A stretch of DNA of 2,547 bases. Source: Escherichia coli. GTDB lineage: Bacteria; Pseudomonadota; Gammaproteobacteria; Enterobacterales; Enterobacteriaceae. The notes below the pieces were generated by a model, which saw only the letters and a program-made list of their open reading frames with translations, had not been told where the DNA came from and ran no database searches. This document shows, one piece after another, positions 312-633 of this stretch. The position numbers were made by a program, and so were the translations under genes. Numbering within the stretch: position 1 is the first letter of the stretch; each line of letters begins with the position of its first letter. The stretch lies in the NCBI RefSeq assembly GCF_003334785.1, contig NZ_QOWV01000056.1, one strand, 5' to 3'.

Positions 312-343
312 AAAAAGCCACGTCTCCCGGAGAAGACGCGGCC
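312..343 (-). terminator. Rho-independent terminator-like hairpin plus T-tract (minus strand)
   Basis: Minus strand reads GGCCGCGTCT-TCTCCGGG-AGACGTGGC then TTTTTCATTTATT: a 9-bp GC-rich stem (one G-U wobble), 8-nt loop, then a T5 run. It sits about 25 nt downstream of the stop of the 366-620 open frame and about 50 nt upstream of the DUF932 start. The + strand has no T-tract after the hairpin. Confidence 0.5.
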
Positions 344-365
344 TGATGGGTGAAATGAATGACGT

Positions 366-539
366 TTATTGTCTGAGAAGACCGTCACTGGCGAGCCGTG
401 TATTAAGCACCTTTCCGGCATCGGGTTCAGAATTCCGGCAGCGCCAGCGTCGCTGACCTTCCGCGTTGCGGATAATCCGCCGGAAATGCATTCCTAGATA
501 AACACATTGCGGTAAGCTGTTATGACAGCAACTGTCTGT
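366..539 (-). pseudogene. Possible 3' remnant of a truncated backbone gene (open frame without a credible start); alternatively a 41-aa arginine-rich small ORF
   Basis: Minus-strand frame open from 620 to a TAA stop at 368..366 (...[49 protein letters not shown]). The only in-frame ATG (491..489) gives 41 aa and has no spaced Shine-Dalgarno. The GC-rich part resembles the backbone in composition and is followed by the terminator at 312-343. Identity unknown. Confidence 0.3.
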
Positions 540-600
540 TTGCGTGAGAAAGGATCTTCGGAAAATAAAAGTAATGTACAGCCCGTCATGTGTTTTCAGG

Positions 601-633
601 TAAAAATAAAGCCCCTGCCATTATGGCAGAGGA
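601..633 (-). terminator. Putative intrinsic terminator downstream of the 137-aa secreted-protein gene
   Basis: Minus strand reads CCTCTGCCA-TAA-TGGCAGGGG followed by CTTTATTTTTA: an imperfect 8-9 bp stem then a T-rich tract, about 55 nt past the stop at 687. Confidence 0.4.

Follow-up and report, generated by a model that had tools for sequence, protein, structure and literature searches.

The window analysed here is a 2,547-nt stretch of Escherichia coli DNA (assembly GCF_003334785.1, contig NZ_QOWV01000056.1). A CP4-like island of E. coli TW10722 matches it at 99.9% identity, and the same arrangement is found in 77 complete genomes. Read along the minus strand, the window passes from cargo genes through a small locus at 366–589 and an intrinsic terminator into the 5' part of a DUF932 gene (Table 1). 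The small locus is our subject. It is, with little room for doubt, a DUF905 gene (PF06006; YkfF family) that is complete in length and broken, a pseudogene through a 10-bp deletion. The locus was already known: its TW10722 counterpart, 100% identical to 366..589, is annotated in RefSeq as 'DUF905 family protein, frameshifted', as are counterparts in other matching genomes, and it is an ordinary pseudogene.

A split DUF905 gene upstream of DUF932

The initial annotation of this DNA had drawn attention to a long open frame on the minus strand, and translation bore it out: 84 sense codons (620..369) lie between stops at 623..621 and 368..366. The sole ATG of this frame (491..489) opens an arginine-rich open reading frame (ORF) of 41 amino acids (aa). 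Directly 5' of that ATG lies TAGGAATG, with AGGA only 1 nt from the ATG, the wrong spacing for a Shine-Dalgarno sequence; here too the annotation, which had seen no spaced Shine-Dalgarno, was right. A length of 84 open codons would by itself be unremarkable. What takes the frame beyond chance is its match to residues 36–77 of intact DUF905 proteins (blastp, E = 1e-29, with 40–41 of the 42 aligned residues identical).

The annotation had allowed that no frame of 366–620 might resemble any protein. Two separate minus-strand frames do, each matching one half of intact DUF905 proteins by blastp. The second is that of the true DUF905 start, ATG 589..587, which differs from the frame of the 84-codon stretch; the N-terminal segment that it opens matches residues 1–33 of intact DUF905 at E = 2e-15. 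When the two segments were joined in a repaired protein, with the lost codons put back, it matched the Pfam DUF905 model over positions 4–68 of 70 (E = 6.6e-18, 64.9 bits). It also matched phrog_8779 and PDB 2hjj (E = 1.3e-16), the NMR structure of YkfF, which is the DUF905 protein of prophage CP4-6 in E. coli K-12; this last alignment passes through the deleted residues. An NCBIfam search with the repaired protein and both fragments returned no family, and weak phmmer matches to TonB C-terminal domains were not significant (E 0.3–0.9). A structure model of DUF905 has an alpha-beta3-alpha fold, at mediocre confidence (predicted local distance difference test, pLDDT, 67.5), and fold searches with it found nothing significant.

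Other islands of E. coli have an intact DUF905 gene of 234 bp (77 codons) exactly here. DNA alignments of the window to these genes contain a single 10-bp gap, with 88–99% identity elsewhere. The missing 10 bp, GGATGACCCG, fall between two GGA triplets, and with them goes the stretch Q-D-D-P-G, whose two aspartates are invariant in 23 family members. Just before the junction, a change of CAG to TAG (C>T) makes the stop at 496..494; O157-type alleles retain the CAG, as does the one intact contig described below. In place of an uninterrupted DUF905 ORF of ∼70–80 codons there are thus 31 and 41 codons in two frames, which makes the locus a pseudogene of the DUF905 family and not a functional member. 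The family-invariant residues (alignment A5) are E11, F14, A21, V22, T24, Y26, R27, N28, V29, D33, D34, A61, G62 and S71. D33 and D34 fall in the deleted stretch; the others are all present, but across two frames.

Island DUF905 copies (WP_001213776.1, WP_001119719.1 and WP_001119729.1) and YkfF share with the window locus the gene itself, the position upstream of DUF932 and the downstream terminator. In the window, DUF932 is the next gene downstream of the DUF905 locus and has the same orientation, and the terminator separates the two. The two halves of the window copy are 58–98% identical to the intact island copies (79–98% for the closest). Unlike these and YkfF, the window copy lacks the 10 bp and has the TAG, so that no full-length product is possible.

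At the O157-type locus (L002 8398–8537 (+), corresponding to window 398–537 (+)), the Prokaryotic Genome Annotation Pipeline (PGAP) misses the DUF905 pseudogene and calls an opposite-strand 'hypothetical protein, frameshifted' and a 75-nt fragment. These calls are probably annotation artefacts of the decayed DUF905 gene.

Table 1. Features of the window, in window positions
Feature	Position	Strand	Description	Evidence
DUF905 (PF06006, YkfF/UPF0401 family) pseudogene	366..589	-	224 bp, against 234 bp in intact alleles	RefSeq annotation, alignments, Pfam, PDB
N-terminal segment	494..589	-	ATG 589..587, 31 codons, TAG 496..494	ORF list, blastp
10-bp deletion junction	492..495	-	GGATGACCCG lost; exact spot ambiguous within GGA microhomology	alignments
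C-terminal segment, the 41-aa ORF	366..491	-	DUF905 residues 37–77, out of frame with the start	blastp
Intrinsic terminator of the DUF905 gene	305..344	-	Stem 344..315, T-rich tail 314..305; between DUF905 and DUF932	
Terminator-like hairpin and T-run	600..632	-	Hairpin 632..612; downstream of the 137-aa gene, just upstream of the DUF905 start	
DUF932 gene, 5' part	1..268	-	ATG 268..266, AAGGAG Shine-Dalgarno at ∼276–281	annotation of matching loci, sequence
137-aa cargo gene	687..1100	-	Hydrophobic, signal-peptide-like N-terminus; directly upstream of DUF905	phrog_8968, E = 9e-36
179-aa DUF4339 (GYF_2-type) membrane protein	1370–1909	-	Intact in every genome sampled	

Alleles and history of the lesion

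The ungapped deletion junction was found in ∼150 of 5,426 complete E. coli genomes, and 569 gave a match when the probe included the 10 bp. This frequency marks the deletion as a real allele and not a sequencing error. We searched the same 5,426 genomes for an intact allele of this particular N-terminal variant, using a repaired 175-nt query, and found none: all 40 of the 40 best matches listed were the 165-nt deleted form. A large protein collection did contain a sequence (P0001) 100% identical to the repaired DUF905 sequence. It is encoded on a gut-metagenome contig of 667 bp (L012; ENA ERZ950358) that has the same upstream 137-aa gene. Over DUF905 and the sequence upstream of it, contig and window disagree only at the deleted 10 bp, at the C/T of the TAG and at two further substitutions. 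Because the contig is near-identical yet intact, the sequence comparison identifies the intact gene as the ancestral state and the lesion as recent.

Deletion carriers share their surroundings. All eight that we sampled have the same upstream cargo, in the order patatin-like gene, 152-aa gene or its remnants, DUF4339 gene, 137-aa gene, DUF905 pseudogene and DUF932 gene. They do not share all their lesions. The TAG is found in the window, TW10722 and SCPM-O-B-9427; O111:H8 strain 7-58 has a 1-bp deletion and a different TAG; GXU-23-25-310 has a TAA inside the C-terminal part; and in O157-type alleles, where the TAG is absent, the wrong frame stays open (P0101). Since the secondary lesions vary in this way between strains, the alleles indicate neutral decay of a pseudogene after a single founding deletion.

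A simple history accounts for these alleles. The ancestor was a 234-bp, 77-codon DUF905 gene directly upstream of the DUF932, antirestriction, RadC and CbeA-CbtA backbone of CP4-like islands. A 10-bp deletion between the GGA triplets, probably by replication slippage or a microhomology-mediated event, took out the conserved Q-D-D-P-G turn and put the rest of the gene out of frame. In this sub-lineage the upstream frame was later closed as well, when the CAG became TAG. Two short ORFs are left, one of 31 codons for the N-terminal part and, in another frame, one of 41 codons for the C-terminal part. The remnant most likely has no function.

The backbone/cargo junction

In these islands, conserved backbone gives way to variable cargo within the opening codons of DUF905. 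Most other island types cease to match the window at about position 552. The first ∼13–18 codons of the gene (552–589 (-); ∼4260–4300 in L003, L004 and L005) form a mosaic junction. DUF905 N-termini differ between island types and co-vary with the upstream gene, with length and frame preserved, and recombination breakpoints apparently fall inside the gene. The N-terminal 18 codons in the window are a rarer variant, linked to a particular cargo set. The position of this junction explains the drop in GC content noticed in the initial annotation: 55.7% in 366–496, 40.9% in 497–589 and 32% in 590–686.

The expected ribosome-binding site, at 590–600 (-), also differs between islands. It reads CCTGA in the window lineage, the intact contig L012 included, AGGTGA in SCU-112 and AGGAGA in CFSAN061763. 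With CCTGA present even upstream of the intact gene, translation initiation may already have been weak before the deletion.

Alternative explanations for the open frame

The initial annotation read the open frame as what is left, at the 3' end, of a longer backbone gene, most likely a GTPase of the YfjP/YeeP family, whose 5' part had been displaced by the insertion of AT-rich cargo. The fall in GC content across 497–686 and the end of homology to most other island types near 552 are what such an insertion would leave. The GTPases YeeP, YfjP and YkfA do come from the same class of CP4-like islands, and in the genomes closest to the window a GTPase pseudogene lies 7–10 kb further upstream, beyond the cargo. 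However, these GTPases have no similarity to 366–620 in any frame, and here the GTPase is not adjacent to DUF932. A tblastn search with all six frames of 300–690, run against the frameshifted or partial GTPase genes of L001 and L002, gave a best E of 0.3, and the Pfam search found DUF905 only and no GTPase domain. Nor is the 5' part displaced: the whole of it, start codon included, is in place at 494–589, and other islands have intact DUF905 genes that run across this mosaic junction. A truncated GTPase is extremely unlikely on this evidence. What stands of the annotation is a non-functional backbone remnant before a genuine terminator, with a 41-aa peptide that is no gene of its own. Truncation does not stand, the lesion being an internal 10-bp deletion plus a nonsense change; likewise, comparison with intact islands gave no insertion breakpoint that truncates the gene, only the internal deletion and the junction in the first ∼13–18 codons.

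The annotation's other suggestion was a genuine 41-aa peptide. In its fullest form this would be a small gene translated from ATG 491..489, possibly by reinitiation, or else two fragments acting as a split DUF905. Gene callers have occasionally called products in the 41-aa frame (P0080), but the peptide is simply DUF905 residues 37–77 by blastp, and Met37, which is T or R in several family members and hence not conserved, was no ancestral start. Against a small gene, too, are the premature TAA inside the ORF in GXU-23-25-310, with a PGAP truncated-pseudogene call in TUM18530 that fits the same allele type, and the wrong-frame read-through of the O157-type alleles. The deletion also takes the invariant DD, part of strand 1 and the next turn of a small alpha-beta3-alpha fold, and the 41-aa start has no usable Shine-Dalgarno spacing. 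We regard a small gene as very unlikely. Programmed -1 ribosomal frameshifting could in principle restore a full-length product from the deleted allele, the C-terminal frame being at -1 relative to the N-terminal frame. However, no X XXY YYZ slippery heptamer precedes the junction (GTG TTT ATC TAG), the stop lies exactly at the junction in the window allele, a frameshifted product would still lack the DD, and other strains have additional inactivating lesions; the chance of such recoding is negligible. Equally negligible is the chance that the gene is intact and the 10-bp gap an error of sequencing or assembly, since the same junction recurs in ∼150 independently assembled complete genomes of various serotypes and hosts.

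Several observations nevertheless weigh against a simple pseudogene. One or both fragments may be translated: only 2 nt separate TAG 496..494 from ATG 491..489 (TAGGAATG), a spacing at which reinitiation can occur. Seven of the nine deleted alleles examined keep the 41-codon ORF open, as expected for a young lesion and also compatible with weak retention. The intact 'ancestor' is a single 667-bp contig and could in principle be an assembly chimera, and the proposed deletion mechanism is read solely from the GGA microhomology. The least ordinary readings are reinitiation at the TAG/ATG to give 31-aa and 41-aa peptides, separate or reassembling, or a selected loss of DUF905 in this cargo lineage. 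A selected loss, if true, would hint that the functions of DUF905 and of the cargo (the 137-aa protein, DUF4339 and the patatin / RdcB / dynamin module) conflict. Nothing positive supports fragment translation or selected loss, and we give the pair very little credence. A DUF905 gene broken by a 10-bp deletion removes a false lead, there being on this reading no truncated GTPase and no new arginine-rich peptide gene, and it comes with an exact lesion and polarity.

DUF905 in islands and plasmids

DUF905 is very common: most E. coli genomes have it, and relatives of it occur on at least 5,000 plasmids, 4,425 of these being conjugative. In the plasmid leading region the family is the same by Pfam at ∼40–46% identity, and DUF932 is found there too; an IncF example has the order ssb, DUF905, parB-like gene, psiB, with DUF932 nearby. 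The plasmid copies, in contrast to that of the window, are intact, and their neighbours are ssb and psiB instead of an island cargo module. The literature likewise links DUF905 with psiB/psiA in plasmid leading regions; it holds no demonstrated function for the family in either the island or the plasmid setting. Since DUF905 is typically found where conjugative plasmids have their leading region, our best guess is that it may act in early establishment in a new host after transfer.

The deleted allele amounts to a natural DUF905 knock-out fixed in ∼3% of complete E. coli genomes, and DUF905 is therefore dispensable once the island is resident. Such dispensability would fit a role confined to transfer or establishment.

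Terminators and the DUF932 gene

The strong hairpin and T-run of the initial annotation were recovered as a predicted intrinsic terminator with a stem of 13 pairs (7 of them G-C), a 4-nt loop and the tail TTTCATTTAT, including T5. The hairpin begins 21 nt past the DUF905 stop codon. It folds at -22.6 kcal/mol (z = -5.8), more stably than any of 200 shuffled sequences. It resembles other rho-independent terminators in its GC-rich stem, its loop and the T-run that follows on the coding strand, and shows nothing unusual. All aligned alleles, intact and deleted, keep it. The O157-type allele differs at two stem positions, one going from G.U to G-C and the other from G-C to G.U, with pairing preserved. 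The retained terminator would presumably still keep transcripts of the cargo genes and of the pseudogene from running on into the DUF932 operon. In contig L012 there are two changes in the terminator stem, and sequence 3' of the terminator diverges from the window.

The second hairpin, 632..612 (-18.8 kcal/mol, z = -3.95), together with its T-run, is likely the terminator of the 137-aa gene. A promoter scan of the minus strand between the DUF905 terminator and DUF932 found no sigma-70-like site. Rfam 15 covariance models gave 0 matches at E <= 1 over the whole window on both strands, and the window therefore contains no known small RNA or leader.

Cargo genes and window edge

The 137-aa gene was linked to the deleted DUF905 allele in all sampled genomes. 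Its protein showed no similarity to proteins encoded at the same position elsewhere (an IrmA family protein, and a 150-aa protein in SCU-112), so the cargo truly differs between islands. The 137-aa protein contains cysteines, and it was intact in every genome sampled.

The third cargo gene, at 2035–2458 (-), is a second pseudogene. In O111:H8 7-58 it is intact (L007 3034–3492) and encodes 152 aa with a signal-peptide-like N-terminus. The window copy has a TGG>TAG change at 2418..2416, also present in TW10722, and an insertion sequence (IS) has removed its first ∼10 codons, so that only a 117-aa internal ORF (2035–2388) is left. The IS occupies the window edge: 2459–2547 are the terminal ∼90 nt of an IS66-like (ISCro1-family) element, with the 3' end of the transposase gene on the minus strand (...RDLLPWKVDLSSQ*). 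None of the related islands matches beyond 2458–2461, and no complete E. coli genome of the collection has the IS at this site.

Upstream of the window, the related loci (L001 10625–14987; L002 10614–14967) encode a dynamin family protein, an RdcB family protein and a patatin-like phospholipase, and in TW10722 the Cah autotransporter precedes these three. The dynamin / RdcB / patatin module could be a defence-like or signalling module.
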